Below are positions 2,811 to 45,585 of a stretch of DNA of 64,000 nt, piece after piece. The notes below the pieces were generated by a model. The model ran no database searches and was not told the DNA's origin. It was given only the letters and a program-made list of their open reading frames with translations. Source of the stretch: Candidatus Moraniibacteriota bacterium (GTDB lineage Bacteria > Patescibacteriota > Minisyncoccia > Moranbacterales > UBA2206); NCBI GenBank assembly GCA_003543115.1, contig DPJH01000036.1, forward strand, positions 9,182 to 73,181. The letters run 5' to 3'. Numbering within the stretch: position 1 is the first letter of the stretch; the number at the start of each line of letters is the position of its first letter. Both the position numbers and the translations under genes were made by a program.

Positions 2811-3467
2811 ATGGAAACAACTATCAGTCCTATTATAAAATTCTTTATTCTGCAGGGCGTTCCTATGGAAACTATTATTCTTATCCTGATGCTCCCTCTC
2901 ATTGCTACTTTTATAGCCTTTTTACGGCAAGTAGTAGGAATTAAGGCTTTTGGAATATACACTCCGCTCATCATCACCTTTGCGTTCCTCGCCACCAATG
3001 GACTGCGCTATGGAATCGCTATTTTCCTGGTTATTCTTTTTTTAGGCATGCTTATGCGTTTTATGCTAAAGCCTTTCCGTCTGCTCTATCTTCCTCGAGT
3101 AGCTATAATGCTTACAGTGGTAGCCCTATTTATTCTTTTATTCTTATTTTTCGGAGGCGTCATACAAAGAACCGGACTGGCTTCTGTCTCCATCTTTCCC
3201 ATAGTCATTATGATCACATTAGTAGAAAAATTCGTTTCTGTTCAAATTGAAAAAGGCGACAGAACCGCTCTTATTTTGGCTTTTGAAACCCTTATAATAT
3301 CCATAATTGGTTTTTACATAGCCAGTTGGGGAACACTACGCACCATGCTATTATCCTATCCATGGCTAATCCTGCTCACCATTCCAATCAACATAATCAT
3401 TGGAAAATGGACCGGACTTCGCATCAGTGAATATATCCGTTTTCGCAATATTCTTAAAAAGCTTTAA
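2811..3467 (+). CDS. 7-TM integral membrane protein (partner of ATP-grasp ligase)
   Basis: It has about seven hydrophobic helices and lies immediately upstream of the alpha-L-glutamate-ligase-like ATP-grasp gene with a 3-nt gap. This matches the known conserved pairing of a 7TM protein with TIGR02291-type ligases. Confidence 0.5.
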   Translation: METTISPIIKFFILQGVPMETIILILMLPLIATFIAFLRQVVGIKAFGIYTPLIITFAFLATNGLRYGIAIFLVILFLGMLMRFMLKPFRLLYLPRVAIMLTVVALFILLFLFFGGVIQRTGLASVSIFPIVIMITLVEKFVSVQIEKGDRTALILAFETLIISIIGFYIASWGTLRTMLLSYPWLILLTIPINIIIGKWTGLRISEYIRFRNILKKL

Positions 3468-3470
3468 TCT

Positions 3471-4877
3471 ATGTTTCAGTTTTTCAAAAATAGCAAAAAA
3501 CTTCTCGGCATGAATTCAAGAAATCTTGAATTTATTCGGCCTTATAATCTTCGAGGTGCCAAGAGATTGGCTGATGATAAGCTTCTCAGCAAAAAAATTC
3601 TCAGAAAAAATGAAATTGCTATTCCCAGGCTTATCGCTAAAATAAAAACTATTGAAGATTTAGAAAATTTTGATTGGCAAAGCCTTCCCACCAGTTTCGC
3701 CTTGAAGCCTAGCCGAGGTTTTGGAGGAGAAGGAATCGTTGTGGTTTATGGAAAGAAAAAAAACAGAAATGATGCTTGGATAAAAGCCGATCGTTCTATT
3801 GTCACCATAGATGATCTGCGAAATCACATAAGAAACATTCTTGACGGATCTTTTTCGCTTTCCAATACGCCAGATGTAGCTTTTTTCGAAGAACGCTTGC
3901 AGCTGCTCAAGCTTTTTAAGCCTTATTGCTATAAGGGCATACCGGATATCCGTATTATTGTTTTTAATAAAGTTCCGATTATGGCTATGCTAAGACTTCC
4001 CACTAAAGAATCCCATGGAAAGGCTAATTTACAGCAAGGAGCCGTGGGAGTGGGAATTGACATGGCCACTGGCGTCACCACCACTGCTATCCAAGGCAAA
4101 AGCAGTTTCATTGAAAAAATTCCCGACACAGAACTTTCCGTTAGCGGACTTAAAATTCCCTACTGGAAAGATATGCTGACACTGGCTGTCAAAACCCAAA
4201 AAATTTCTAAATTAGGTTTTTTGGGAGTGGATGTGGCGATTGATAAGAATCTCGGACCTGTCATCCTTGAACTTAATGCCCGCCCAGGACTTTCTATTCA
4301 AGTAGCTAATTTAGCAGGACTTGCGGAAAGACTCAAAAGAGTTTCCGGATTAAAAATACAGACTATTGCCAAAGGAGTGCGCATGGGAATGGATCTTTTT
4401 GGAGGAGAGATTGAAGAAGAACTAGAGGAAATTTCCGGAAAAAAAGTAATTGGAACAATCGAAAAAGTGAGGCTCATGGGAAAAAACGGAAAAGAAATTG
4501 AAGTTGAAGCTAAAATTGACACAGGAGCGTTTTCCACTTCTATTGATACAAAAATTGCTCTAGAATTAGGATTTGAAGATGTTTTAAAATACTTTTCTTC
4601 TCTTGATTTGCCTAAAAATTTTTCCAGAGAGGAATCAAAAAAAATAGAAGAGGATCTCAAAAGAAAATATCTTGAAAAACATCCTGATTTAGCTGATATA
4701 ATTATAATATATTCTTCCAGCGGAGTTTCAGTGCGCCCTAAGATAAAAATTTCTTTTATTCTAGATGGAATAACTATTACATCCAAGGTTAATGTCATTG
4801 ACCGCAGCGAATTAAATTATTCTGCTATTATAGGAAAACAAGATTTAAGAAAATTTTTAATTGATGTAAATAAATAA
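3471..4877 (+). CDS. alpha-L-glutamate ligase-like ATP-grasp enzyme fused to a C-terminal retropepsin-like (RimB/'ATP-dependent zinc protease' PF05618-type) domain
   Basis: The N-terminus (MNSRNLEFIRPYNLRGAKRLADDKLLSKKIL...KPSRGFGGEGIVVV) matches the RimK-related alpha-L-glutamate ligase-like family. The C-terminal roughly 130 aa (IGTIEKVRLMGKNGKEIEVEAKIDTGAFSTSID) carry a D-T-G-A aspartic-protease motif like RimK-associated RimB proteins. Confidence 0.65.
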   Translation: MFQFFKNSKKLLGMNSRNLEFIRPYNLRGAKRLADDKLLSKKILRKNEIAIPRLIAKIKTIEDLENFDWQSLPTSFALKPSRGFGGEGIVVVYGKKKNRNDAWIKADRSIVTIDDLRNHIRNILDGSFSLSNTPDVAFFEERLQLLKLFKPYCYKGIPDIRIIVFNKVPIMAMLRLPTKESHGKANLQQGAVGVGIDMATGVTTTAIQGKSSFIEKIPDTELSVSGLKIPYWKDMLTLAVKTQKISKLGFLGVDVAIDKNLGPVILELNARPGLSIQVANLAGLAERLKRVSGLKIQTIAKGVRMGMDLFGGEIEEELEEISGKKVIGTIEKVRLMGKNGKEIEVEAKIDTGAFSTSIDTKIALELGFEDVLKYFSSLDLPKNFSREESKKIEEDLKRKYLEKHPDLADIIIIYSSSGVSVRPKIKISFILDGITITSKVNVIDRSELNYSAIIGKQDLRKFLIDVNK

Positions 4878-4883
4878 TGCCAG

Positions 4884-5798
4884 ATGAAAAAGATCCTACT
4901 TATCGGAATTGGGGAAGAAAATAATCCCAGCCAAAAAATAATAATTGCTCTCAAAAAACAAAAGATCCCCTATATATACACCAAATGGTCCAATCTGTCT
5001 TTTCAAGGAGAAAATGTTTATATGGGATTGGAAACAATCAACTTTAAAAACATAAGATCTGTCATATTTGATATTTTCCGTTTTCCTATAATAAAAAAAG
5101 AAAACAAAGAAGAGATCAATTACAATCTAGAAAATGAATTCAATGTATTACTCAACCTGATTAAAGAAAAAGGGATCTACACTCCAAATCAATCTTTTTT
5201 TTCACAATACCCTTTTTATAATAAATTTTCGCAAATGCACGTCTTTGCTTCAAAAAAAATCCCTTCTATACCTACTGTCCATCTTTGTGACAATAAAAAA
5301 GAAAAGGTCTTTAACTTATTAAAACAGCTCGCCCCCTCTTTTCCTTTGGTGGTAAAAGAAAGTTATGGGGGGGGTGGAAATAATGTTTGGAAAGTAAAGA
5401 CAAAAAAAGAATTGGAGAATTTTATTGAAAAGAGAAGGAATGTAAATATTGTTTTTCAGCCTTACATAAAAAATGATGCGGACTATAGGGCGATTGTCAT
5501 AAACGGAGATTGTCTTGGTATAATGAAACGAAGCGCGCAAAAGGGGCAATGGAAAAATAACTTTTCTCTAGGCGGAAAGGTGGAAAAATATGCAGATAAA
5601 AAAATGGAACGTTTTGCTGTTATGGTTTGTAAAAAATTAGGGCTTGAAATGGCTGGTCTGGATATTCTTTCCACAAAAAATGGCTTTGCAATAATTGAGA
5701 TTAACCTATTTTTCGGGCTTGATGGCTTTCAGTCAGTTTATCCTGAAATAAATGTAGCGGAAAAAATAATCAATTTTGTTAATACTAAAGTTATATGA
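4884..5798 (+). CDS. RimK/glutathione-synthetase-like ATP-grasp ligase
   Basis: Carries ATP-grasp motifs: LVVKESYGGGGNNVW, DYRAIVINGDCLG, NNFSLGGK and AGLDIL...AIIEIN. Confidence 0.6.
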   Translation: MKKILLIGIGEENNPSQKIIIALKKQKIPYIYTKWSNLSFQGENVYMGLETINFKNIRSVIFDIFRFPIIKKENKEEINYNLENEFNVLLNLIKEKGIYTPNQSFFSQYPFYNKFSQMHVFASKKIPSIPTVHLCDNKKEKVFNLLKQLAPSFPLVVKESYGGGGNNVWKVKTKKELENFIEKRRNVNIVFQPYIKNDADYRAIVINGDCLGIMKRSAQKGQWKNNFSLGGKVEKYADKKMERFAVMVCKKLGLEMAGLDILSTKNGFAIIEINLFFGLDGFQSVYPEINVAEKIINFVNTKVI

Positions 5799-6754
5799 AA
5801 AAAGTAATGATCCTTTTCGGAAAAAGCAATTGGCAAAAAGCCAAGCCTTTTTCCAATAAGGAATATCAATATTCATATGAATATTTTTATTCTTTATGCA
5901 AAAAAAATGAGATTCAGATGTATCGCGCTTCTTATCAGTGGTACGATTATAAAAATCATGTTTTTAAATATGCTTGGATTTATGAGGGAGAAAACGGAAA
6001 TTGGAAAAAAGTTAAAAATATCAAACCTGATTTGATTTATGATAAAACCAAGGCTCGCATGGAAACATATTATATGAAAGAATTGATAGGAGAAAATTAT
6101 CCATTCATCAATAATCAGCTTTTTACGAGGCTTATTGATGATAAATTCACCACCAGCCTAATTTTTTCCGATTGGAGCAAAAAAAATTGGCTTATAAAAA
6201 ATACCTCTGAACTAAGGGATGTTCTTCCCAAAATAAAAACAACGAAAATCGTTATTAAGCCTCTTATGGAAAGCGGCGGCAATGGAGTCCAGGTTTTGTC
6301 CAAAAAAGAAGCTTTGAAAAAAGCCTGTCTTCAGGAAACTAATTTAGTTCAAGAGTTCATTGATTCTTCAAAAGGAGTTCCTAATATCAGCCATTCCATG
6401 CATGATTTGCGCATAGTTATGGTTAATGAAAAAATTATTTATGCCTATATCCGAGAGCCGAAAAAGGGAAGTTATTTAGCCAACCTTGCTCAAGGCGGCT
6501 CTTTAAAAATCGTACCCAAAGAAAAACTCCCAAAATCTATTCTTCCTATAATAAAATCTGTCAATGAAATTTTGTCTTCTTTTAACCCAAGGGTTTTTTC
6601 TATAGACTTTATGTTTGATGAAAATAAAAAACCTTGGATTGTTGAACTTAATTCTATGCCGGGACTCTTTTTCACTTCAGAAGAAAAGCCTTATATGCTA
6701 GAAATGTATCAAGAATTATTAAATGTTTTTAAAAAAGAATTAAATTTGATTTAA
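5795..6754 (+). CDS. ATP-grasp ligase (YheC/YheD- or TTL-like)
   Basis: Shows KIVIKPLMESGGNGVQVL, DLRIVMVNEKIIYAYIR, ANLAQGGS and WIVELNSMPGL. Its start overlaps the stop of the upstream gene (ATGA), indicating an operon. Confidence 0.55.
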   Translation: MKKVMILFGKSNWQKAKPFSNKEYQYSYEYFYSLCKKNEIQMYRASYQWYDYKNHVFKYAWIYEGENGNWKKVKNIKPDLIYDKTKARMETYYMKELIGENYPFINNQLFTRLIDDKFTTSLIFSDWSKKNWLIKNTSELRDVLPKIKTTKIVIKPLMESGGNGVQVLSKKEALKKACLQETNLVQEFIDSSKGVPNISHSMHDLRIVMVNEKIIYAYIREPKKGSYLANLAQGGSLKIVPKEKLPKSILPIIKSVNEILSSFNPRVFSIDFMFDENKKPWIVELNSMPGLFFTSEEKPYMLEMYQELLNVFKKELNLI

Positions 6755-6760
6755 TTTCGT

Positions 6761-7249
6761 ATGCCAAGGATAATTAAAAAATTATCTGCTAAAGATAATT
6801 TGATTCTTCTTAAAATGCATAATAAAAATTTTTCTTCTTCTTATTGGGAAGAGGATAATTGGAATCACTTTTTATCACCCGACAGAAAGTCTCTTATGTG
6901 TGCCATTAAAAAGAAGGGTGCTTACGCAGGTTTTATAATGGGAAAACCCACACAAGCAAGCTGTTCTGTCATGCTCCTCAATACTCTGCTTGTAGCGCCT
7001 GCTTATAGAAAAAATGGCTATGGAAAAAGGCTGGTTGCTTTCTTTTTAAGCACTGCCTTTTCCATTCCTCAAACAAGGAAAGTGATTTTGCATTTTCGAG
7101 ATTCAAATAAAAAAATTCTTCTTCCTTTTTATAAGAAACTGGGCTTCGGAAATCATTCGATCAGGGGTTTTTATACTAATGGAGAGCTCAAGCATTATAT
7201 GTCCCTAACAAAAAAATGTTTCCTCAAAGAATCAAAAAGCCTTAGCTAA
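6761..7249 (+). CDS. GNAT family N-acetyltransferase
   Basis: Has the acetyl-CoA binding motif LVAPAYRKNGYGKRLV and is 162 aa. It is the last gene of the ATP-grasp operon. Confidence 0.6.
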   Translation: MPRIIKKLSAKDNLILLKMHNKNFSSSYWEEDNWNHFLSPDRKSLMCAIKKKGAYAGFIMGKPTQASCSVMLLNTLLVAPAYRKNGYGKRLVAFFLSTAFSIPQTRKVILHFRDSNKKILLPFYKKLGFGNHSIRGFYTNGELKHYMSLTKKCFLKESKSLS

Positions 7250-7357: not shown

Positions 7358-9895
7358 ATGTATATTTTTTCACCTAAAAGCTCAAATAATGATTTTTCCA
7401 GAAATTTTCCACAAAAAAAATTCAAAATAAACTGGAAACTATTAAGAAAAATCTTTCTTTATTCTTTTATTGCAGGAATGCTTTTAGTGGTAGGAATTTT
7501 TGCTTGGTTCGCCAAAGACCTTCCCAGTCCTGGAAAGGTCAATACTCGCGTGGTGGCAGAATCCACGAAAATTTATGATCGCACCGGAGATCATATTCTC
7601 TATGACATCCACGGAGAAGAGAAAAGAACACAAATATCTTTTAATGACATTCCAGAAACACTGCGCTATGCCACTATTTCTCTGGAAGACCAAAATTTCT
7701 ACAGCCATCCCGGCTTTGATATTAAGGGTCTTGTTAACGCGGTTATGTCTAACATACTAAAAGTGGGCGGCGGAAGAGGCGGTTCAACCATTACGCAGCA
7801 ATTTGTTAAAAATTCACTTCTGTCCGGAGAAAGGTCATTATCTCGCAAAGTAAAAGAGTTGATTTTGGCTATAGAAATTGAAGTTAAATTCTCTAAAGAT
7901 GAGATTTTGGGAATGTACCTTAATGAAATCCCTTATGGATCAAATGCTTATGGCATAGAAGCTGCTGCCCAAACTTTTTTTGGCAAGCATGCATCCGAGC
8001 TTACACTCGACGAGGCAAGCCTTTTAGCTTCTCTTCCCCAAGCTCCTTCTTATTATTCTCCTTATGGAAGCCACACAGATGCTCTTCGCGGCAGGCAAGT
8101 ATATGCTTTGTCTCAAATGAAAAACCTTGGCTATATAACAGAAGAGCAATTTATAGCTGCTAAAGAAGTGGATGTTTTAGATAAGATAAAGCCCTCCTCA
8201 GAAAACATTTCTGCTCCTCATTTTGTAATGTATATCAAAGAATATTTGGAAAAAAACTATGGGAAGCAGGTTCTTGAGCAGGGAGGACTAAAAGTCTACA
8301 CCACTCTTGACTGGGACAAGCAACAAATAGCGGAACAAGCAGTTAGAGAAGGAGCTGAATCCAACACTAAAAAATATAAAGCAGAAAATGCCGCTTTTGT
8401 AGCTATGGACCCTAAAACCGGACAGATTTTAGCCATGGTAGGAAGCAAAGATTATTTCGATAAGTCTATCGACGGACAAGTAAATGTTTCTATTCGAGAG
8501 CGCCAACCAGGCTCATCATTCAAGCCCTTTGTCTATCTTACCGCTTTCAAAAAAGGCTACTTGCCAGAAACTCAACTTTGGGATGTAGATACGAATTTTT
8601 CTGTTGACAGCGAAAAAGATTATAATCCTAAAAATTATGACGGAAAAAATCATGGATTGCTTCAAATGAAAGATGCTCTGGCAATGTCTCTTAATGTTCC
8701 CGCCGTTAAAACTCTTTATCTTGCAGGAATTAATGATTCTATCACCACCGCCAAATCTCTTGGCATAACTACGCTTAATAAGCCTGATAATTATGGCCTT
8801 TCTCTTGTTCTTGGCGGTGGAGAGGTAACGCTTCTAGATCATGTAAACGCGTATGGAACCCTAGCTACCGGAGGAATTCATCATAATAAAACCGGCATCT
8901 TAAGAATATCTGATTCGTCCGGAAAAGTTCTTGAAGAATATAAGGAAGATCCGGGTGAACGAGTCATTGAAGAAAAATATGTAGCTATGCTTGATTATAT
9001 ACTATCTACCAATTCTCTTCGCGAATCGGTTTTTGGAAAAAATAATCCATTAAGCTTTTCTGACCGCCCTGTGGCCGCTAAAACGGGCACCACAAACGAA
9101 TGGCGTGATGGTTGGACACTTGGATACACTCCGTCTATTGCAGCTGGCGTCTGGGCAGGAAATAACGATAATACTATTATGGCTCCAGGAGCTGATGGGG
9201 TTCTTGTCGCTGCTCCTATTTGGAGAAAATTTATGGATAATGTTCTAAAAAACTATACCATTGAAGATTTTCCTAAATATGAAGAGGAAAAGGATGTAGA
9301 AAAGGATATTTTAAAAGGCAAATTAGATCCGACAGGGAAAATAGAAGTGTGTAAAATAAAAAAGGATAAGTATTGTTTAGCCAGTGACGCTTGTCCTGAC
9401 GGATATTCAGAGAAAAAAGAGTTTTTTTCCGGTCATAATATTTTATGGTATGTGGATAAAAAAGATCCCCGAGGAGACACGCCTAAAAAACCTGAAGATG
9501 ACCCCCAATATAAAAACTGGGAAAAGGCCGTTCAAAAGTATGCTGAAAAAAATAAAGATTTTAAAAAAGATTCCGCCCCTACTGAAAAATGCGAGTCTGA
9601 TGATTTTTCAAATATAGAGCCTTCTGTTGAAATAAAAAATCCTTCTAATGAATCTACCATAACATCTTTCAATTTCAATATTAGTGCTTATGGATCCTCG
9701 CCTTTTGACATAGATAAGATAACTTTATATATAAATGGCGACGAGGTGGCTTCTAATAGCGGCTCTAAAATTGATTATGAATACAAAGTGCCTTCCGAAA
9801 AGAACAATTCTGACTTAGAAATAAAAGCCACAGTGAAAGACGGAAATAACTCATCAAAATCTACCAATATAAAGGTGCATATTGCCATTCCTTAG
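7358..9895 (+). CDS. class A penicillin-binding protein (PBP1A: glycosyltransferase + transpeptidase) with C-terminal extension
   Basis: Contains the GT51 motifs EDQNFYSHPGFD and GGSTITQQ, and the transpeptidase motifs SSFKP and KTGT. An N-terminal TM anchor is present. Confidence 0.85.
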   Translation: MYIFSPKSSNNDFSRNFPQKKFKINWKLLRKIFLYSFIAGMLLVVGIFAWFAKDLPSPGKVNTRVVAESTKIYDRTGDHILYDIHGEEKRTQISFNDIPETLRYATISLEDQNFYSHPGFDIKGLVNAVMSNILKVGGGRGGSTITQQFVKNSLLSGERSLSRKVKELILAIEIEVKFSKDEILGMYLNEIPYGSNAYGIEAAAQTFFGKHASELTLDEASLLASLPQAPSYYSPYGSHTDALRGRQVYALSQMKNLGYITEEQFIAAKEVDVLDKIKPSSENISAPHFVMYIKEYLEKNYGKQVLEQGGLKVYTTLDWDKQQIAEQAVREGAESNTKKYKAENAAFVAMDPKTGQILAMVGSKDYFDKSIDGQVNVSIRERQPGSSFKPFVYLTAFKKGYLPETQLWDVDTNFSVDSEKDYNPKNYDGKNHGLLQMKDALAMSLNVPAVKTLYLAGINDSITTAKSLGITTLNKPDNYGLSLVLGGGEVTLLDHVNAYGTLATGGIHHNKTGILRISDSSGKVLEEYKEDPGERVIEEKYVAMLDYILSTNSLRESVFGKNNPLSFSDRPVAAKTGTTNEWRDGWTLGYTPSIAAGVWAGNNDNTIMAPGADGVLVAAPIWRKFMDNVLKNYTIEDFPKYEEEKDVEKDILKGKLDPTGKIEVCKIKKDKYCLASDACPDGYSEKKEFFSGHNILWYVDKKDPRGDTPKKPEDDPQYKNWEKAVQKYAEKNKDFKKDSAPTEKCESDDFSNIEPSVEIKNPSNESTITSFNFNISAYGSSPFDIDKITLYINGDEVASNSGSKIDYEYKVPSEKNNSDLEIKATVKDGNNSSKSTNIKVHIAIP

Positions 9896-10183
9896 TTTGA
9901 CAAAACATAAAAAAAGGAGTATACTGAAAATAGTTAATAAGAAACGGGTGATTTTTATCCTCCGTTTTTTATGTTTTAAAACCCCACACCAATTCCTGTT
10001 AATAAATTTTAATTGGAAGTGGCGTGGGGGCTAAAAACAAAAATAAAAATAAAAACAAATAAAGCAGCCTGCGCAAGCAGAATCAAAAAAACAAGGCTAG
10101 GTATTCCTTGCCTTAGGCCCAGAAGTTAATCTTCGAGGGTTCTAAATAAAAAGCGCCTCTCAATAAAATGGAGGCTGCTTTTT

Positions 10184-10462
10184 TTATATTTTTATTTTAT
10201 CTATCGCCTTGCCGCCTATTTCACTGTTAATTTTCCTTACTATTTTATCTCTATTAAGCCATAATTCAGAAGACCAGACGGAGCTGTTGGATTTTATAAA
10301 AATAGTCTTGTCTTTGTAATATTCCGGGCGCAAATTAGCCAGGCCAATATTCCCAAACTCTTCTTTGATTATTTTTTTAAAAATAAAAAAAATAGTCTTG
10401 TCGTCAAGATTTTTTACTTGAAAAACATTCTTTTGGGATAAATAGCTCTTAATTAATTTCAT
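10184..10462 (-). CDS. DUF721/DciA-like protein
   Basis: A 92-aa basic protein sits directly downstream of dnaN with a 1-nt gap. DUF721 (DciA) proteins characteristically sit in dnaA-dnaN operons. Confidence 0.45.
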   Translation of the reverse strand: MKLIKSYLSQKNVFQVKNLDDKTIFFIFKKIIKEEFGNIGLANLRPEYYKDKTIFIKSNSSVWSSELWLNRDKIVRKINSEIGGKAIDKIKI

Positions 10463-10463
10463 C

Positions 10464-11618
10464 CTATCCTTTTATTGGCATTACAATATATATATATTCA
10501 TCTAAAACTTCTCCTGTTTTTTCATTTATCTCCTTAATAGCCACCGGGGAAGATTCATTGTTTAATAAAATTGCCACCTTGCCGGTTCCAATAATATTTA
10601 TTCCATCTAAAAGGTATTTTGAGTTAAAAACTACTTCTTGAGATGGCCCTACGATGTCTACCATAAGCTCTGTTGAATTTTCTCCACACTCTACGCTTCT
10701 CGCTTCAATAAAAAACTTTTCTGCCTCAGAATCGATTTTAAAAACGATCTCGCTATTTTTAGTTTTGGAAAAAACGCTCGACATTTTTATTGCTCCTTGA
10801 ATAGTACTTTTTTCACCCACAACCCTTGTTTGAAATTCCTTAGGCATTATATGTTTATATTCAGGATATTTCCCATTAATAAGCCTTGATACAATATTAA
10901 CCCCATTAATCTCAAAAAATATCTGTCCATCCTCTATGGCTATATTTATTTCTTCATCTATTTCACTGTTTATGATACGAGCTATTTCTGATAGTGTATT
11001 GGCAGGTATAATTATGCTGTCTTTTTTAGAGATAAAATCAAGATAACCATCTTTTATATTACCCTCTTCCAATAAAAATTTATTTTCTACCAATCGAAAA
11101 CTGTCAGTAGAGGCAAAATATAATTCATTTTCTTTAAAAATAAGATTTATCCCTGTTAATTCTTGTCTAGTTTCATTAAAAGCCACGCAGCTAATAACCT
11201 TGTTTATTATATTTTTTAATTTAATACTAGAAAGAGTTAATATATAATCACTATTTTTCCTTGGCAAAAGAGGAAAATCATCTGCCATCAATCCTTTTAT
11301 TATTGCTTTAGATGTACCACTTTTTATTTTTAAATTCTGATTATCCACCTCTATATTAATATTTTCTCCAGAAGGAAGATTATTTATAAAATTACTTATA
11401 AGTTTTGCAGGAATTGTAATTTTTCCTTCCTTTTCAATTTTAGCTCCTATTTGTTTAGAAATACCTATTTCCAAATTTGTAGCGGATATTTTCAAAACAC
11501 CATTTTCTGTCTCAAATAATATATTATTCAAAATAGGCAATGTGTTTTGTTTAGAAACTACCCTTTCTGAATTTAGAATAGCTTTTTTGAATTTTTCTTG
11601 AGTGCATGTAAGTTTCAT
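10464..11618 (-). CDS. dnaN: DNA polymerase III beta sliding clamp
   Basis: It is 384 aa with a three-domain clamp architecture and lies immediately downstream of dnaA. Confidence 0.85.
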   Translation of the reverse strand: MKLTCTQEKFKKAILNSERVVSKQNTLPILNNILFETENGVLKISATNLEIGISKQIGAKIEKEGKITIPAKLISNFINNLPSGENINIEVDNQNLKIKSGTSKAIIKGLMADDFPLLPRKNSDYILTLSSIKLKNIINKVISCVAFNETRQELTGINLIFKENELYFASTDSFRLVENKFLLEEGNIKDGYLDFISKKDSIIIPANTLSEIARIINSEIDEEINIAIEDGQIFFEINGVNIVSRLINGKYPEYKHIMPKEFQTRVVGEKSTIQGAIKMSSVFSKTKNSEIVFKIDSEAEKFFIEARSVECGENSTELMVDIVGPSQEVVFNSKYLLDGINIIGTGKVAILLNNESSPVAIKEINEKTGEVLDEYIYIVMPIKG

Positions 11619-11890
11619 AATATTAGATATATAATATATTATTTAAATATATATAAATAAATAGTTATTATATATAGAAAACAAAATTGTTAATAAGTCT
11701 ATTTTATGGCTATAATAAAGTATTTTATCTGTGGATATTGGTGTGGATAACTAAATGATTTGGTTTATTATAAAAAGGAGTTATTTTTTAAATTTCTATA
11801 AATCACTTAATTCTAAACACCTAATCAGTCAAATACTAGAGGTTTATTTATAGGGAATAGAGAGGAAAAAAACAACTTATCCACAAGTTA
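11619..11890. promoter_or_regulatory. dnaA-dnaN intergenic region with DnaA boxes (oriC-associated / dnaN promoter)
   Basis: Perfect DnaA boxes (TTATCCACA or its complement) are at 11742-11750 and 11878-11886, plus a one-mismatch box at 11731-11739. The region is AT-rich. Confidence 0.55.
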
Positions 11891-13267
11891 TCAAGTAATC
11901 TTATATAACCTTTCCTTTATAAGGGTTATTTCTTCTATTAATTTATCATTATTTTTTAATTCTCTGGTTATTTTATTACAAGCATGAATAGTTGTTGTGT
12001 GGTCTCTTCCTCCTAATTTTTCTCCTATTCCCGGAAAAGAATATTCTAATTCGCTTCTCATAAGATACATCGCGATTTGTCGTGGCTTAACAACCTCTTT
12101 TTTTCTATTTTTAATAATCAGATCATTTGGGTTTATATCATAAAAAGACGAGACAATATTGATAATATGTTTATGGTTGATGCCTTTTTTCTTTCCACTG
12201 GTAATAAGTTCTGATAGAAGGGTTGAAACATATTCTAAAGAAGGCTCTTTTCCGCTTAATTGAGAGGAGACCATAACTCTATTAAAAGCTCCTTCAAGTT
12301 CACGAATATTATTAGTTATGTTTTCAGCTATAAAGCTTAATGTTTCACTGGGAATATTAAAATTTTCATCACGAGATTTCTTGCTTAATATAGCCATTCT
12401 TGTTTCAAAATCAGCTTTTGAAACATCAGCAATCATGCCTCCTTCAAAACGTGAACGCAATCTTTCTTCTAGGGTTGGAATAGCTTTTGGAGCTCTATCG
12501 CTGCTTAAAACAATTTGTTTGTTAAGTTGGTATAAATAATTAAAAATATGGAAAAATTCCTCCTGCGTTTTTTCTTTTCCAGATAAAAACTGAACGTCAT
12601 CTATAATCAAAAGATCTATTTTTTGATAATGCTCCTTGAAATCATTTACCTTTTGTGTTCTAATAGAATCTATAAGTTCACTTGTAAAGCGCTCTGAAGT
12701 TATATATTTTACTTTTCTAGAGGGATTTTTTTGTAATATTTCATTGCCAATAGATTGAAGAAGATGTGTTTTTCCAAGTCCCACGCCTCCGTAAATAAAC
12801 AAAGGATTGTAAATTCTGCCTAGATTTTGAGAAACAGCGTAACAAGCAGCCTTAGCAAGCTCATTGCTTGATCCGACTATAAAATTTTCAAAAGTATATT
12901 TAGGATTAAGATTATTTTCTTGGCTTATGGTAAGGGTTTTTTTAATGAGAGGCTTATTTAAGATAATTTTCTTTGGAGGTTGAATAGCATCCACCCTGTT
13001 CTCTGAAAAAGAAGTATCATCGCTTGTTTTTATAGAACAAACAACCTCTCGTATGTTGTTTTGGGTATTGCGGAGAGCTTTAAGAATATATAGATTATAT
13101 TTATTCTCCAGCCATTCTTTAGCAAATCCATTTGGAACGCCAATAACAACCCTTCCATTTTCACTGGAAAGGATAGAAGTGTTTTTAAACCACGTAATAA
13201 AATTAGCTTTCGAAATTGAAAGTTCTATTTCCCCCAAAGCAGCCCTCCAAAGCTCTTCATTAGTCAT
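11891..13267 (-). CDS. dnaA: chromosomal replication initiator DnaA
   Basis: Has the AAA+ Walker A GVGLGKTHL and the C-terminal DnaA-box binding domain (GGRDHTTTIHACNKI). Confidence 0.9.
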   Translation of the reverse strand: MTNEELWRAALGEIELSISKANFITWFKNTSILSSENGRVVIGVPNGFAKEWLENKYNLYILKALRNTQNNIREVVCSIKTSDDTSFSENRVDAIQPPKKIILNKPLIKKTLTISQENNLNPKYTFENFIVGSSNELAKAACYAVSQNLGRIYNPLFIYGGVGLGKTHLLQSIGNEILQKNPSRKVKYITSERFTSELIDSIRTQKVNDFKEHYQKIDLLIIDDVQFLSGKEKTQEEFFHIFNYLYQLNKQIVLSSDRAPKAIPTLEERLRSRFEGGMIADVSKADFETRMAILSKKSRDENFNIPSETLSFIAENITNNIRELEGAFNRVMVSSQLSGKEPSLEYVSTLLSELITSGKKKGINHKHIINIVSSFYDINPNDLIIKNRKKEVVKPRQIAMYLMRSELEYSFPGIGEKLGGRDHTTTIHACNKITRELKNNDKLIEEITLIKERLYKIT

Positions 13268-13530
13268 GGTGTGATATTAATAAGAAAGATTCGTTATAAA
13301 AATAATTATATCATGCAAAAAAACAGATGTCTAAGCAAAATGTGGATAAAGGTGTGGATAAGCTGTTGTTAATAAGAAATAATCATAAATATATGTTCAT
13401 TATAGAATAGGATGGTAAAAAAGCAAATGGGAATAATTTAAATAAAAAGATAAAGCATATAATTGACTTTAGTAGAATTAATTGATAAACTTCTAATTAT
13501 TCAAAATAATAAAGAATATAATATATAAGT
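13268..13530. promoter_or_regulatory. probable oriC / dnaA promoter region (rpmH-dnaA divergent intergenic)
   Basis: Two perfect same-orientation DnaA boxes (TGTGGATAA) sit at 13341-13349 and 13353-13361, followed by a roughly 150-bp very AT-rich tract. This is the canonical rpmH<>dnaA origin context. Confidence 0.6.
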
Positions 13531-13668
13531 ATGAGTCAAACATATCAACCATCCAGTACTAGAAGAAAAAGAAGACATGGGTTTCGCAAAAAAAATGAAA
13601 CTGCTTCTGGCCAAGCTGTGCTGAAAAGAAGGAGAAATAAGGGAAGAAAAAATCTGACCACCGTTTAA
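13531..13668 (+). CDS. rpmH: 50S ribosomal protein L34
   Basis: Hand translation gives [45 protein letters not shown] (45 aa). It is absent from the ORF track only because it is under 60 aa. Confidence 0.85.
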
Positions 13669-13697
13669 GGTGAATTAATTCATTCGAGTTCATAATA

Positions 13698-14054
13698 ATG
13701 CTTCCTTTTAAAAATCGCCTAACTAAAAAAAAGGACCACGAAAAAGTTCAAAAACTAGGATATTTTGTTTCTTTAGGCAATATAGCTATAAAGAGCTTAA
13801 AGAATGACTTAAAGGAGACAAGGATAGGTATTGTAGTTGGTCTTAAATTTTCTAAAAAATCCACAGAAAGAAATCAGGTAAAAAGAATTTTACGTGATAT
13901 TGTTCATACTGAGCTGAAAAACATAGAAAAAGGATGGGATGTCGTTATTATGGCCAGAAAAAGAGAGGAAGAAAAAAGCAAAAATATTAATTTCAAAAAA
14001 AATATGTTGGCTGTCCTTGAAAAAGGAAAGCTATTATTAAATAAAAAATCTTAA
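13698..14054 (+). CDS. rnpA: ribonuclease P protein component
   Basis: A 118-aa basic protein starting MLPFKNRLTKKKD sits at the conserved position after rpmH. Confidence 0.8.
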   Translation: MLPFKNRLTKKKDHEKVQKLGYFVSLGNIAIKSLKNDLKETRIGIVVGLKFSKKSTERNQVKRILRDIVHTELKNIEKGWDVVIMARKREEEKSKNINFKKNMLAVLEKGKLLLNKKS

Positions 14055-14066
14055 ATAAATAAAAAA

Positions 14067-14840
14067 ATGTCTTTTTTGTTCCACGTGTTTGTTTATCAAC
14101 CAATTTATAATCTGCTGATTTTTGTTTATAATATTATACCTGATTTTGGAGTGGCAATAATATTCAGCACTATTGTGGTGAAGTTTTTTCTTATCCCATT
14201 AAGCAAAAAACAAATAGAATCACAAAAGAAAATGCAAGAATTGCAACCAAAAATAAAGGAAATTCAGATAAAATATAAAAAAGATAAAGAAAAACAAAGC
14301 CGTGCAATGATGGAATTATATAAGGAAAGCAAGACCAATCCATTTTCCGGGTGTTTGCCTATGATTGTGCAATTAATTTTTTTAATAGCTATTTACAGGG
14401 TTTTATTCAATATTTCCACAGCCGGATTGGTGGTTAATCAGTCTGATTTATATTCTTTTGTTGCTAACCCAGGACAAATCAATAAAATGTTTTTAAGTTT
14501 GGTTGACTTGGCGGCGGCTATTGATTTCTCTAATATAACCATACAGAGCATGCCGCACATAATATTGGTTGTTTTAGCGGCAGCAGCTCAATTTATTCAG
14601 ACAAAAATGTTGATGAATAAAAGCCCAATTAAAACCAATAAAAATGAAGAACCGGATTTTTCAGAAATAATGACCAAGCAAATGCTTTTTCTTGGGCCCC
14701 TCCTAACTCTTTTTATTGGAATAAAGTTTCCGGCAGGACTTGCTTTATATTGGCTAGTTTCTACTTTGTTTATGGTGATACAGCAAGTATATATGGAAGT
14801 AAGAGCTAAAAAAACGGATAGTTTAAAAGTTAATAGCTAA
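14067..14840 (+). CDS. yidC: membrane protein insertase YidC (short form)
   Basis: It is a multi-TM protein with Oxa1-like core motifs (PLSKKQ..., GCLPMIVQ) at the conserved rnpA-yidC position. Confidence 0.8.
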   Translation: MSFLFHVFVYQPIYNLLIFVYNIIPDFGVAIIFSTIVVKFFLIPLSKKQIESQKKMQELQPKIKEIQIKYKKDKEKQSRAMMELYKESKTNPFSGCLPMIVQLIFLIAIYRVLFNISTAGLVVNQSDLYSFVANPGQINKMFLSLVDLAAAIDFSNITIQSMPHIILVVLAAAAQFIQTKMLMNKSPIKTNKNEEPDFSEIMTKQMLFLGPLLTLFIGIKFPAGLALYWLVSTLFMVIQQVYMEVRAKKTDSLKVNS

Positions 14841-14851
14841 GTTTTAAATAT

Positions 14852-15340
14852 ATGGAAAAAAAAGAAATTAAACTGGAAGATCTAATAAAGGAAATAGTAC
14901 TTGAATTATTACAAAAAATGGGATTTTCTTGTGAAATTGAAATCATTAGGGAAAAAGACGTGGAACAGGAAAGAGAAAACTTGATTTGCAATATTAAAAC
15001 CGAAGAGTCTAATTTTTTAATTGGCCAATATGGAGTTAATTTGCAGTCACTTCAGCATATCGCTCGAGTTTTAGTAAGGCAAAAAACGGAAGAAAGGACA
15101 AATTTTATTTTAGATGTTAATTCATATCGCAAGGAAAAAAATTCTTCCATAATAAATTTAGCCAGGAGCACTGCGCAGCAAGTGATACAGGAAAGGCGGC
15201 CGATAGTTCTTCGACCGATGTCTCCTTATGAGCGAAGATTGGTCCATATGGAGCTTGCTAAAAATACAGCCGTTATAACTGAAAGCACAGGAGAGGGCAA
15301 TGAAAGAAAAATTATAGTTAAGCCAGTGAATATTATATAA
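14852..15340 (+). CDS. Jag/KhpB-like RNA-binding protein (KH + R3H)
   Basis: Has a C-terminal R3H motif (RRPIVLRPMSPYERRLVHMEL) at the conserved yidC-jag position. Confidence 0.75.
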   Translation: MEKKEIKLEDLIKEIVLELLQKMGFSCEIEIIREKDVEQERENLICNIKTEESNFLIGQYGVNLQSLQHIARVLVRQKTEERTNFILDVNSYRKEKNSSIINLARSTAQQVIQERRPIVLRPMSPYERRLVHMELAKNTAVITESTGEGNERKIIVKPVNII

Positions 15341-43275: not shown

Positions 43276-43698
43276 TTAGGAAAGGTAAATGTTGGGCAGA
43301 TGCTTTATTTTGGCTCGCCGCGTTTCCCAATCAAGCCAAACAGAGATAGCATCAAATCTGTACGATTTATCTTCCCAATGCATTTTTCTAAGGTATACGG
43401 AGGCTATTTTCGCTAGTTTTTGTAATTTTTGATAATTAATATTCTCTTCAGGCATAGTCTTGCCATATCTGGCATAATCCCTGCTCTTTACTTCTACGAA
43501 TATGATCTCGTTTTCTTTTGTGTCTCTGGCTATAATATCAATTTCTCCTATCCTTCGTCCGCAGTCATTCTTAAAATTCATTGCCAATATTTCAAAGCCT
43601 TTGCTTCGGAGAAAATTAGCCGCAACTTGCTCACCTGTTTTTCCTACGGATTGGGTATTTGGAATGATTTTCTCTTCGCTCATGACTATATTATACAT
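43276..43698 (-). CDS. yraN: YraN (UPF0102) family endonuclease
   Basis: Contains GEQVAANFLRSKGFEIL, GEIDIIA and FVEVKSR. Confidence 0.75.
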   Translation of the reverse strand: MYNIVMSEEKIIPNTQSVGKTGEQVAANFLRSKGFEILAMNFKNDCGRRIGEIDIIARDTKENEIIFVEVKSRDYARYGKTMPEENINYQKLQKLAKIASVYLRKMHWEDKSYRFDAISVWLDWETRRAKIKHLPNIYLS

Positions 43699-44511
43699 AA
43701 AATTTCACTTTTGGAAACAAAAAAAACACCTCTATGGGTGATATAGAAACCTAGGGTGTTACAGAGGTATGTACCTAAATAATAAAATATTGGACAACAT
43801 ATAACACCCAAAGGTGTTCGTCAATGTGAACGCGTCGGACTTTTTGAGTCATTTGATTGGGTGAGAACCATTTAACCACTAAAAGGTCTAGCGTGTAATG
43901 TTATTACTTACACATTGAAAAGTTTAGTATTATTCTGACTTTACTTAATACTTTTTGACTCTCTTACCATTCTCTGGCACTTGGCCTTTGAATCGTCGGT
44001 AACTACTTGGAGAAGCATTTATCGAATTGCTGCTCGAAGTAGTTACCAACTTGTTTTAAAGAACATTTTTTATTTTTTGTTTTTATTTTAATAAAAATTT
44101 TTTTGTTTTTATTTTAGGGTCCTCCGGTCAGAAGTCGGAGGCGGCTTCAAGATGTTACTTGAAACACTTGAACAGTAGAGAGGTTTCAATCGCAAATAGG
44201 GGGAAATTGCGATTGAAGCTCCTCTACCGTTACTGGAATTTAATTTTCAAGGATCACTATGAACTTATTATAGCAAAAATAAGCGGCTAGGTCAATCATT
44301 TGGATCATCATGGTTAAGAAAATGCAGCATTCATGGGATAAAAGATATTTATAGTTGGATGTATGCTATCGCAATGTTTTTTTGTTGAATAAATAATTAA
44401 AAACTCTTTTTTTAAAATGAAATTTAATTTTAGATAAAAGCGGGTTATTCAACAAGTTATCCACAGCTTATACTATTAATTCCAAATAAAAGGTATTGTC
44501 GGCAGTCTAAA
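43699..44511. ncRNA. candidate structured ncRNA locus (unidentified)
   Basis: The 813-bp region has no ORF of at least 60 aa and is locally GC-richer than its surroundings. It holds multiple strong hairpins (44121-44141, 44173-44229, 43994-44053). I found no tmRNA, RNase P or SRP signature motif. Confidence 0.3.
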
Positions 44512-45585
44512 TTATAGATTTGCTTTGTCTAGGATGGATTCGATTGTGAATTTGGTTGTTGTTATAATAAGTTTATTTCCTTGAAACGCATAATCAATCG
44601 AAAGCTTTTGGGCGGAAATCAAATTTTGATATCTGATAGTATGATTTTTGTATTGAGTGCTTTCAAATGGGGATGTGGGAATTGCAAAATCTGAATATGG
44701 CAGGATGGAAGCAAGCTCCTTATATAAAGAAGTTTCTTCTTGGGAAATTTGATTATTTGCCAACAGGGGATCTGTGGTATTTAAAACCAGACCCACTCCG
44801 AAATTTCCATTATCATCAAACAAAAATAAGCTGAATTTTTTTTCTAGAGAAGATAATATCTCAGCAGAGAGGGTTATATCGGCCATCTTTGCAAAATCAG
44901 AAAATGATATAGGATTATTTTCTTTGTCTACTACTGTAAATTCTATCGGTGTTTTTAATTTGGCGGTAACAATGTTTTGAATTTTGGATTCTAATGTTTT
45001 TTTAAGCGATACCGGATCAATACTGGCAATGTCTATGACAAGATAATTAGGGCTTTCTGCGCTTATTGTCAGAGCAGTATCCTTTTCTTCTAACGGATTT
45101 TCTTGAGCAATATTTAATGATGGGCTGCTTTGAATTTTATTTTCTGGGGATTTTCTCGTAGTAATGAAATAATATGTTCCAATGCCAACAAAAATAATAA
45201 TCAAGAAGCTCAATAAAAGCAGAATTTTTTTTGAACCGGACGACTCGGACATTTTAATATTAGAGTCGATCTTGGGTTGGATGATCTTATTTATTTGTGC
45301 ATAATCTTGTTTTGATTTCGGCCTGCTTTCATCTGAAAGATTTGATTTTTCGGGGGGAGTAAGAAAAGGACTGCTTTTTTGCTTCTCGTTCAATTGCAAT
45401 GATGGATTTTCAGGAGATGATTTTTCCGGGTAAAGAGTTTTCTTCATTGAAGGATTTTCAATTTCTTGGATATCCTTTTCCATTGTATGAATAATGATAT
45501 CTTCAATTTTGTAGTCTTTTTCCTGGCTTAAATTATTGTTATTTTCTTGGTTTTCATCAACAAATGTGCTTTGATTTCTAAACAT
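44512..45585 (-). CDS. hypothetical bitopic membrane protein
   Basis: It is 357 aa with a low-complexity cytoplasmic N-region, one TM helix (ILLLLSFLIIIFVGIGTYYFI) and an extracellular domain. Confidence 0.45.
   Translation of the reverse strand: MFRNQSTFVDENQENNNNLSQEKDYKIEDIIIHTMEKDIQEIENPSMKKTLYPEKSSPENPSLQLNEKQKSSPFLTPPEKSNLSDESRPKSKQDYAQINKIIQPKIDSNIKMSESSGSKKILLLLSFLIIIFVGIGTYYFITTRKSPENKIQSSPSLNIAQENPLEEKDTALTISAESPNYLVIDIASIDPVSLKKTLESKIQNIVTAKLKTPIEFTVVDKENNPISFSDFAKMADITLSAEILSSLEKKFSLFLFDDNGNFGVGLVLNTTDPLLANNQISQEETSLYKELASILPYSDFAIPTSPFESTQYKNHTIRYQNLISAQKLSIDYAFQGNKLIITTTKFTIESILDKANL

Follow-up and report, generated by a model that had tools for sequence, protein, structure and literature searches.

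A candidate family of large structured RNAs encoded between pnp and yraN in Candidatus Moraniibacteriota

Bacteria have few RNAs that are both large and highly structured, and those among them that are understood mostly do sophisticated chemistry or assembly; examples of large structured RNAs are the ribosome, RNase P, the group I and group II introns, tmRNA, OLE and ROOL/GOLLD. The gene of the OLE partner protein, oapA, lies adjacent to the OLE gene. One account describes OLE as working in a membrane-associated ribonucleoprotein (PMC10898510). ROOL and GOLLD form RNA-only nanocages, and their kissing loops, first seen by covariation as 'tertiary' contacts, are the intermolecular bridges of homo-oligomers (PMC12286853). 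Here I analyse a stretch of 64,000 nucleotides (nt) from a Candidatus Moraniibacteriota bacterium (contig DPJH01000036.1; hereafter the window), in which an 813-bp gap between genes, at positions 43699-44511, is almost certainly the minus-strand gene of a structured RNA. This RNA very probably represents a new family, unrelated to the known ones. Taken as a whole, the explanation that I favour, with a probability of roughly 0.6, is an undescribed large structured non-coding RNA (ncRNA) of about 545 nt that acts in trans.

Among the described systems, the locus resembles OLE RNA (about 600 nt, found in Bacillota) in its size, in covarying helices set among conserved unpaired nucleotides, in its restriction to one lineage and in being encoded beside a membrane-protein gene, and the biochemical function of OLE also stayed unexplained for long. 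However, it shows no sequence or structure match to OLE in Rfam and belongs to another phylum, no homologs of the OLE partner proteins came up (no search was aimed at them), and its adjacency to a membrane-protein gene is uninformative because the whole neighbourhood is syntenic. It is large and ornate like ROOL and GOLLD, and ROOL also has a disordered or low-complexity linker. Unlike these it has no Rfam match and no association with phages or tRNA clusters, but lies among core genes in a genome of the 1-Mb class (a size that was not measured; the longest contigs bearing the RNA are 767 kb, JBAQEZ010000003.1, and 788 kb, Ga0209319_1000001). With OLE, ROOL, GOLLD and also raiA RNA it shares size, ornateness, lineage restriction and an unexplained function, but it fails to match their models and is a member of none of these families.

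The gap is bounded by stop-to-start limits, has no open reading frame (ORF) longer than 43 amino acids (aa) on either strand, and carries no annotation in the independent gene calls of the public contig. No other gap in the window that separates ORFs of 100 aa or more is as long, which bears out the original prediction, made from the letters of the sequence, of an ORF-free stretch of about 800 bp among the longest non-coding ones. The local GC enrichment described there holds for the block 44117-44240 (0.476) and marginally for 43750-43900 (0.391), but not for the region as a whole, which at 0.326 lies below the window mean of 0.358; the AT-rich segment 44051-44116 has a GC fraction of 0.076. 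Multiple strong hairpins, the third feature named, are present: the segment 43699-44300 folds better than its dinucleotide shuffles (z = -6.4 on the minus and -12.7 on the plus strand, with 0 of 20 shuffles as good), and inverted repeats with arms of 25-26 nt are found at 43995-44050 and 44171-44231. On the minus strand the genes follow in the order PNPase (pnp), a 357-aa protein, the gap, YraN, a DksA-like zinc-finger protein, LspA and ComM.

A sigma-70-type promoter and an intrinsic terminator delimit the predicted transcript (Table 1). The promoter agrees with the consensus at 11 of 12 positions and in addition has the TG of an extended -10 element. TTGAC-N16-19-TATAAT, usually with a T-rich spacer, recurs in 42 of the 47 homologous loci described below (40 of 45 besides the window's own contig records, L001-L003), and the TTGAC, TG and TATA.T columns are invariant in an alignment of 13 genomes. 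In 12 of these 13 a terminator hairpin with a run of 5-8 T (at least 6 in 10 of the 12) stands at the equivalent place, and in L004 it is not identifiable. The RNA predicted from these signals measures 485-640 nt in the relatives.

Relatives were collected by a scan with the neighbouring PNPase, keeping one genome per species, and the closest ones are metagenome-assembled genomes labelled as Candidatus Moranbacteria/Moraniibacteriota or Patescibacteria (L004-L017). Searches with the gap by blastn and nhmmer find cores that are 72-78% identical in L004-L016, downstream of pnp and one variable gene and upstream of yraN, within ORF-free gaps of 600-900 bp. A scan of JGI metagenomes with the two-block pattern ACTGTYCRA-N44-54-AAAANAAAAAYAAA, followed by profile searches, leads to 47 loci (41 non-redundant) at which the element is present with both its halves; the pattern demanded ACTGTYCRA and the A-tract, and more divergent members may have escaped it. 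For all genes within the available sequence, the flanking gene order is the same at 47 of 47 loci and is broken at none. A 5'-domain covariance model identifies just one copy in the window, and no homolog at pnp in more distant candidate phyla radiation members (CPR; L017-L024, L032, L039) or in other phyla. Matches to the DNA pattern number 18 in IMG/VR, none of which passes the covariance model, so that no phage copy was found and an association with phages is rejected.

The comparative alignment that the original prediction had proposed as a check shows a conserved element with abundant compensatory changes. It comprises a 5' domain (H1-H3) and a 3' domain (H4, H5, the core inside P6, and P9), with conserved A-rich single strands between them. 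In a MAFFT alignment of 40 sequences, built from sequence without regard to structure, 90.1% of the cells of the 5' domain are paired, compared with 78.2% after partner shuffling; 25 of 34 pairs are changed on both sides, double-change cells number 182 against 55.5 +/- 8.8 in the shuffled sets, and 0 of 500 shuffles reach any of these measures. When the partners are slid by 1-3 columns, pairing falls to 33-53%. Hairpin H1 has 25 pairs, 15 of them changed on both sides, with about 91-93% of its cells paired, and H2, in which all six counted pairs show changes on both sides, is the top helix of the covariation screen. In the 3' domain, of which the inner junction and the tail are given in outline, the long-range helix P6 comprises 14 pairs, 11 with compensatory changes on both sides (30 sequences), and is broken by conserved internal loops (GCAUGU-nCACAAAAU-ACAUG with CAUGU-UGGn-ACAUGC). 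The seven outer pairs of hairpin P9 show 4-6 double changes each among the 13 genomes, and P9 is the second-best helix in a screen of 39 sequences. The GGC/GCC pairs of a mini-hairpin that includes the invariant GCCAGAG are formed in 13 of 13 genomes.

The original prediction had given no strand. Searched with the covariance model of the 5' domain, the minus strand gets 107.8 bits and the plus strand 30.8, and among paired columns G.U cells outnumber A.C cells by 160 to 65 in the 5' domain and by 12 to 2 in P6; the scores and this excess confirm the minus strand. The folding z-score given above is more extreme on the antisense than on the sense strand, and the folding energy of one sequence alone would have pointed to the wrong strand.

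Among the 47 homologs, no ORF keeps the same position, frame or start. The element thus combines a promoter and a terminator of its own, conservation, compensatory changes and the lack of a conserved ORF, as expected generically of a structured ncRNA gene, and the proposal that the gap is an RNA gene stands, although the gene occupies about 43715-44260 and not all 813 bp. That the gap holds no RNA gene at all is highly improbable. It would then be a DNA element (a replication or DnaA site, a mobile-element scar or a decayed gene), the mRNA of a small protein or a type I toxin, in line with a perfect DnaA box in the gap, conserved in 4 of 13 relatives, and several ORFs of 30-43 aa. However, the box lies outside the conserved element, about 160 nt upstream of the promoter, and the oriC-type cluster flanks dnaA at 11.7-13.4 kb; no repeats or transposase are seen near the gap, and the compensatory changes together with the G.U asymmetry indicate selection on a single-stranded transcript. 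A replication origin at the gap is therefore rejected, as the DnaA boxes cluster at dnaA/dnaN and the box at 44457 is outside the RNA, and small proteins are rejected for want of a conserved ORF. The box itself, TTATCCACA at 44457-44465, follows shortly after the stop codon of the 357-aa gene, and CTGTGGATAACTT stands at the same place in the window and in L006, L007 and L008; through it DnaA might control either the RNA or the gene upstream.

The last 6-7 nt of the H3 loop (K1) are complementary to the loop of H5 (K2), a contact of 6-7 bp linking the two domains. K1 was anchored on each sequence's own H3 stem, the MAFFT loop columns being out of register between subgroups, and K2 was taken from the alignment columns. 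All six pairs are possible in 35 of 38 sequences (mean 5.84), which none of 2000 partner permutations equals (mean 5.15, maximum 5.37). There are at least nine distinct complementary variants of the two segments, among them UCUGAC/GUCAGA, UCUAAC/GUUAGA, CCUAAC/GUUAGG, UCUUAGC/GCUAAGA and UCUGAG/CUCAGA, and further UCUAAG/CUUAGA, UCUGGC/GCCGGA, UCUGAU/AUCAGA, UCGAC/GUCGA and others. This is the classic signature of a Watson-Crick kissing interaction, which the H3 and H5 loops would form within one molecule or between two.

A second set of pairings involves three segments. A near-exact copy of the outer 5' arm of H1 (X1, e.g. GAACGGUGAAAG), termed X2, immediately follows GCCAGAG some 200-280 nt farther downstream, and a segment of 13-14 nt (X', CUUUCACUGUUC) is complementary to both, its pairing with X1 closing H1. 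The variable core changes jointly in X1, X' and X2 (GAAAG, AAAAC, AGAAG, AAGAG, ACUCAC etc.). On average 12.4 of 14 pairs are formed between X1 and X' and 12.5 of 14 between X2 and X', and each of these means beats all 2000 partner permutations. X2 is the better partner of X' at the three outermost positions, where six sequences with a mismatched X1 show an A-U to G-C swap; over the inner variable positions the better partner is X1. Each X' can hold one pairing at a time, and therefore the family conserves two alternative states, which may represent a switch, an ordered folding pathway or an exchange between molecules. A parallel is found in the hok-family mRNAs, for which Gultyaev, Franch and Gerdes reportedly described in 1997 a programmed folding pathway with coupled covariation of three segments. 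There, too, three covarying segments in mutually exclusive helices are read as a folding pathway or a switch; however, the hok RNAs are mRNAs of toxic peptides with an antisense partner, whereas the present RNA has no conserved ORF and is far larger and more structured. By analogy with the intermolecular bridges of ROOL and GOLLD (PMC12286853), the H3-H5 kissing loop and the X2:X' pairing could equally be intermolecular, and an oligomeric reading of this RNA is thus worth testing.

The box GUUCUUU that opens the 3' domain can pair with AGAGAAC 5' of X2, overlapping the start of X2, with little covariation; this pairing is unproven because both segments are nearly invariant. In six homologs (L154, L184, L117, L143, L178, L189) the box reads GUACCUU, and two of these (L154, L184) have GUUCUUU in the 5' leader, where the others have GAACAUU, a pattern that may point to another alternative pairing. 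The leader segment GAACAUUGAAAAC is complementary to the box in some sequences, with a register that varies and no covariation, and its pairing with the box is not claimed. For the conserved leader motif GAUCCUUGAAAAU no covarying partner was found. A pseudoknot between the CUCACCCGG loop and the 3' CCGGG is possible in many homologs, is absent from the window's own subgroup and is likewise not claimed; a tRNA-like minihelix made of P9 and 'ACCA' holds for one subgroup only and is rejected. Two fixed sites are 'permissive' and hold independent, unrelated hairpin insertions: one is the bulge that separates GUUCUUU from AAAGGC, the other lies between the A-tracts of the linker (L004, L012, L013). 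At the first of these the window has its hairpin at 43995-44050 and L011 an unrelated insertion (8630-8720). Large structured RNAs typically have peripheral expansion sites of this sort.

As to the identity of the RNA, the original prediction had named 6S RNA, a divergent RNase P or signal recognition particle (SRP) RNA, or a novel RNA, of which the last is upheld and the others are not. At gathering scores Rfam 15 (4227 families) gives no match in the window or in 12 relatives, including for OLE, GOLLD, ROOL, HEARO, raiA and other large ncRNA models. A relaxed scan (E<=10), also proposed by the original prediction, of the region (about 0.6-1.2 kb) and of the L016 homolog lists only hairpin-like microRNA families and A-rich look-alikes far below threshold. 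At this cut-off there is no match to the models of RNase P RNA (RF00010, RF00011), tmRNA (RF00023), SRP RNA (RF00169) or 6S RNA (RF00013) in either sequence, in listings that reach scores as low as about 9 bits for other families. I also found no description of this RNA in the literature.

RNase P RNAs are recognised by the universally conserved CR-I (GGAAAGUCC), which forms the P4 pseudoknot with CR-V, and by ends paired in P1. A tmRNA has a tRNA-like domain (T-arm GGUUCGAAUCC, acceptor stem and CCA end) plus a tag reading frame, SRP RNA is marked by the domain IV (helix 8) motif, and 6S RNA forms a rod, about 180-200 nt long, that opens into a bubble at its centre. As the original prediction stated, the signatures of RNase P RNA and tmRNA are missing: GGAAAGTCC is absent from 43699-44511 with up to one mismatch allowed, as is the T-arm GGTTCGAATCC with up to two, and the conserved blocks of the family show neither CR-I nor CR-V. 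Inspection shows that the 5' and 3' ends are not complementary and hence form no P1 or acceptor stem, and ARAGORN reports for the window only two tRNAs, at 53.7 kb, and no tmRNA. RNase P RNA accordingly fails on its model match, CR-I and paired ends; tmRNA is ruled out by the T-arm, ARAGORN, Rfam and the lack of a conserved ORF; SRP RNA (RF00169/RF01854) has no match at E<=10; and 6S RNA has none either, the structure being multi-domain and 485-640 nt long and not a single rod.

The idea that the RNA is a universal one, diverged to an extreme degree, with RNase P RNA as first candidate and otherwise tmRNA, SRP or 6S RNA, nevertheless deserves attention, as its size and strong promoter would suit a housekeeping RNA. 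The window encodes RnpA (rnpA, 13698-14054), and therefore an RNase P RNA is needed somewhere in the genome, whereas no rnpB is seen within the 64 kb at Rfam gathering scores. Of 35 circular CPR genomes, 10 yielded no RNase P RNA under standard thresholds, and in many cases the RNA had to be refolded by hand (PMC8172020). These CPR RNAs, which come from the same organism group, have a promoter of the same housekeeping type and are the precedent for evading default Rfam thresholds. However, their P4 core is conserved, and RF00010 detected them once the thresholds were lowered (Lui et al. 2021, PMC8172020), in contrast to the present RNA, which lacks both an RF00010 match at E<=10 and CR-I, and whose order of helices (three 5' hairpins, A-rich linker, 3' domain, kissing loop) cannot be mapped onto P1-P18. 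The absence of rnpB from the window means little, as 64 kb is about 6% of such a genome. I consider a universal RNA very unlikely and class the RNA as a new family and class, with a small residual chance that it is a housekeeping RNA diverged beyond recognition.

Alternatively, the RNA could be a giant cis-regulatory 5' leader or attenuator of the yraN-dksA-lspA-comM operon, in which a sensor switch made of X1 and X2 decides on termination at U8. A leader of this kind is transcribed as one unit with the gene it controls, and its expression platform overlaps the terminator or the ribosome-binding site. It has the strand of yraN and ends 20-60 nt upstream in every locus that reaches yraN, its terminator lies just before this gene, and mutually exclusive covarying pairings are a hallmark of expression platforms. 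However, 250-500 nt separate the toggle from the terminator, and no conserved anti-terminator is seen that would overlap the stem of the latter; a length of 485-640 nt far exceeds that of known riboswitch leaders; a promoter of the strongest consensus type is beyond the need of a small housekeeping operon; and adjacency to yraN is uninformative because synteny is invariant for all neighbours. Furthermore, yraN has a promoter-like site of its own that overlaps the U-run of the RNA terminator (TTTCCA-16-TATAAT, 43717-43690, minus strand). The leader explanation is thus improbable, and the RNA is probably not the yraN leader. The -10 of the yraN site ends 7 nt before the ATG of the public gene call (135 aa), which suggests that the yraN mRNA is leaderless or nearly so.

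Two conserved A-rich tracts make up the linker between the domains (consensus ACC-AAAACAAAAACAAAAA ... GAAAAACAAAAAGAAACAAAAAA), and in some relatives they are split by an inserted hairpin. The tracts have a C or G at roughly every sixth base (e.g. AACAAA repeats), like the motifs by which CrcZ captures Hfq/Crc, and the linker's only Rfam similarity is to CrcZ, at 13.2 and 8.8 bits against a gathering score of 95. The RNA might accordingly be a sponge whose A-rich tracts titrate a protein that binds single-stranded RNA, with the folded domains as a stabilising scaffold. Composition and length of the tracts are conserved, also in the higher-GC relatives L011, L013, L015 and L016 (5' domain 0.47-0.51 versus 0.45 in the window), and a strong promoter would suit a stoichiometric titrator. 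CrcZ and CrcY are likewise RNAs of several hundred nt with repeated A-rich single-stranded motifs, but CrcZ lacks an elaborate covarying architecture, and the roughly 400 nt of covarying structure, the kissing loop and the toggle are not needed in a sponge. The linkers could also be mere flexible spacers, and no Hfq, Crc, CsrA or ProQ homolog occurs among the 35 window ORFs scanned, about one third of its large ORFs. A sponge is as improbable to me as the leader.

The C-rich H1 loop UUUCCCCCUA is kept in about 85% of the homologs. RNAIII of Staphylococcus aureus, a trans-acting RNA of about 0.5 kb with many hairpins, also has C-rich loops, as have RsaE/RoxS, and these pair with G-rich Shine-Dalgarno regions. 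Unlike these RNAs, to which it has no homology, the present one has a single C-rich loop, which is not universal, and for RNAIII neither a kissing loop between domains nor comparable A-rich linkers are known.

I infer that the RNA acts in trans, as a stable and abundant molecule with a structural or regulatory role. Tentatively, and with less than even odds, I take it for the trans-acting core of a ribonucleoprotein or RNA assembly with a built-in switch, the likeliest of the specific mechanisms. The A-rich tracts, the apical loop UUUCCCCCUA, the CUCACCC loop and ACUGUUCAAG would be its binding surfaces, and the exchange of X1 for X2 a conformational switch or an ordered folding step. H1 would fold first during transcription; H5 would then dock on H3 through the kissing loop and so place X2 beside the base of H1; as X1 gives way to X2 in a strand exchange, the two domains would be locked together or two molecules joined; and the 5' leader and X1 would be freed, with the A-rich tracts, the C-rich loop of H1 and the loop with CUCACCC left open to partners. 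It is rather unlikely, though somewhat less so than the leader or the sponge, that the RNA is an 'ornate' one that acts largely alone, as a ribozyme or an RNA-only quaternary assembly. In an assembly the H3-H5 kissing loop and X2:X' would be the intermolecular bridges, and the X1-to-X2 exchange would drive the assembly. If true, the genome-reduced CPR/Patescibacteria would have yielded their first RNA of this sort.

Several observations weigh against the favoured explanation of a trans-acting structured RNA. The homologs belong without exception to a single clade (PNPase identity 67-89%), and the shuffle and permutation controls ignore phylogeny and thus overstate independence, which the control with slid partners and the many distinct pair types mitigate. 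The plus strand folds well too. The gene order is invariant at all loci, so that the neighbourhood does not discriminate between functions. The genome encodes RnpA, and it is known that standard thresholds can miss diverged RNase P RNAs of CPR bacteria (PMC8172020). Finally, the ends and the abundance of the transcript are predictions from sequence signals, and its function is inferred.

CPR bacteria have stripped-down genomes and are thought to be episymbionts. An ncRNA gene of 0.5 kb with a consensus promoter, kept clade-wide in such genomes, therefore implies an important function, possibly a lineage-specific role in host interaction, the envelope, or RNA metabolism beside pnp and yraN. The family offers a testable structural model, made up of its domains, a three-way toggle and a kissing loop for which nature supplies compensatory variants, as well as a seed alignment for a new RNA family. 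It is also a caution that default annotation misses such genes in metagenome-assembled genomes.

Table 1. Features of the predicted RNA gene and its two flanking genes, in window coordinates
Feature	Position	Strand	Remarks
357-aa ORF	44512-45585	minus	one flank of the gap
Sigma-70-type promoter	44267-44295	minus	-35 TTGACC 44295-44290; 17-nt T-rich spacer; extended -10 TGcTATAAT 44275-44267
Predicted transcript, ~545 nt	43715-44260	minus	start ~7 nt after the -10, end in the U-run; from promoter and terminator positions
5' leader motif GAUCCUUGAAAAU	44243-44255	minus	conserved; family consensus GAWCWUUGAMAAY
H1, long hairpin, ~23 bp	44170-44233	minus	5' arm 44233-44207 holds X1; 3' arm 44195-44170 holds X' and invariant ACUGUUC
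H1 apical loop UUUCCCCCUAU	44196-44206	minus	C-rich
H2 hairpin	44144-44167	minus	sequence freely variable, always complementary
H3 hairpin CCUCCG...CGGAGG	44121-44141	minus	loop holds K1, UUCUGAC, 44133-44127
A-rich single-stranded linker ACCCUAAAAUAAAAACAAAAAAA...AAAAUAAAAACAAAAAAUAAAAAAU	44065-44120	minus	many invariant A columns
Box GUUCUUU	44058-44064	minus	invariant in the 13-genome alignment; opens the 3' domain
Insertion hairpin, 56 nt, 26-nt arms	43995-44050	minus	lineage-specific; absent from most homologs
AAAGGCC-loop-GCC mini-hairpin and X2	43959-43989	minus	mini-hairpin 43989-43976, then AGAGAAU + X2 GAAUGGUAAGAGAG 43972-43959
H5 hairpin	43926-43952	minus	loop holds K2, GUCAGAA, 43939-43933, complementary to K1
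Central 3' domain closed by P6	43822-43917	minus	P6 = CAAUGUG 43917-43911 with CACAUUG 43828-43822
P6-enclosed hairpins	43893-43913; 43857-43867	minus	second entry: loop with conserved CUCACCC(GG)
P9, long hairpin UUGGGUGUU...AACACCCUAGG	43750-43811	minus	inner GCC/GGC-type stem; conserved AU-rich apical loop
Intrinsic terminator	43719-43740	minus	CACC-CAUAGA-GGUG, then U8; directly upstream of the yraN start
yraN (YraN/UPF0102)	43276-43698	minus	other flank of the gap; start 43698/43683

The 357-aa protein has a low-complexity, disordered cytoplasmic N-terminus, one transmembrane helix and an extracytoplasmic C-terminal domain, and no Pfam or NCBIfam match; an identical protein is encoded on a sediment-metagenome contig of 72 kb in ENA. 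Its membrane architecture and the lack of a family match led me to reject it as an enzymatic partner such as a reverse transcriptase. At all 47 loci a gene for a single-pass membrane protein of 330-490 aa, fast-evolving (23-56% identity), disordered at its cytoplasmic N-terminus and without a family, lies between pnp and the RNA, always directly upstream of the latter.

Elsewhere in the window, the second-longest ORF-free gap (568 bp, 9896-10463) lies between a gene for a class A penicillin-binding protein and dnaN; it has no Rfam match, and the model of the present RNA gives only a chance match there (E=1). The origin neighbourhood (10464-15340) comprises dnaN (10464-11618) and dnaA (11891-13267) on the minus strand, with perfect or near-perfect DnaA boxes on both sides of dnaA (11730-11885 and 13341-13361), followed on the plus strand by rnpA, yidC (14067-14840) and jag/EloR (14852-15340). 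A cluster at 2811-7249 encodes a membrane protein with seven transmembrane segments of the 'transglutaminase-associated' type, a GNAT acetyltransferase and three ATP-grasp/RimK-like ligases, one of which has a Zn-protease-like C-terminus, and looks like a peptide-ligation or modification module.

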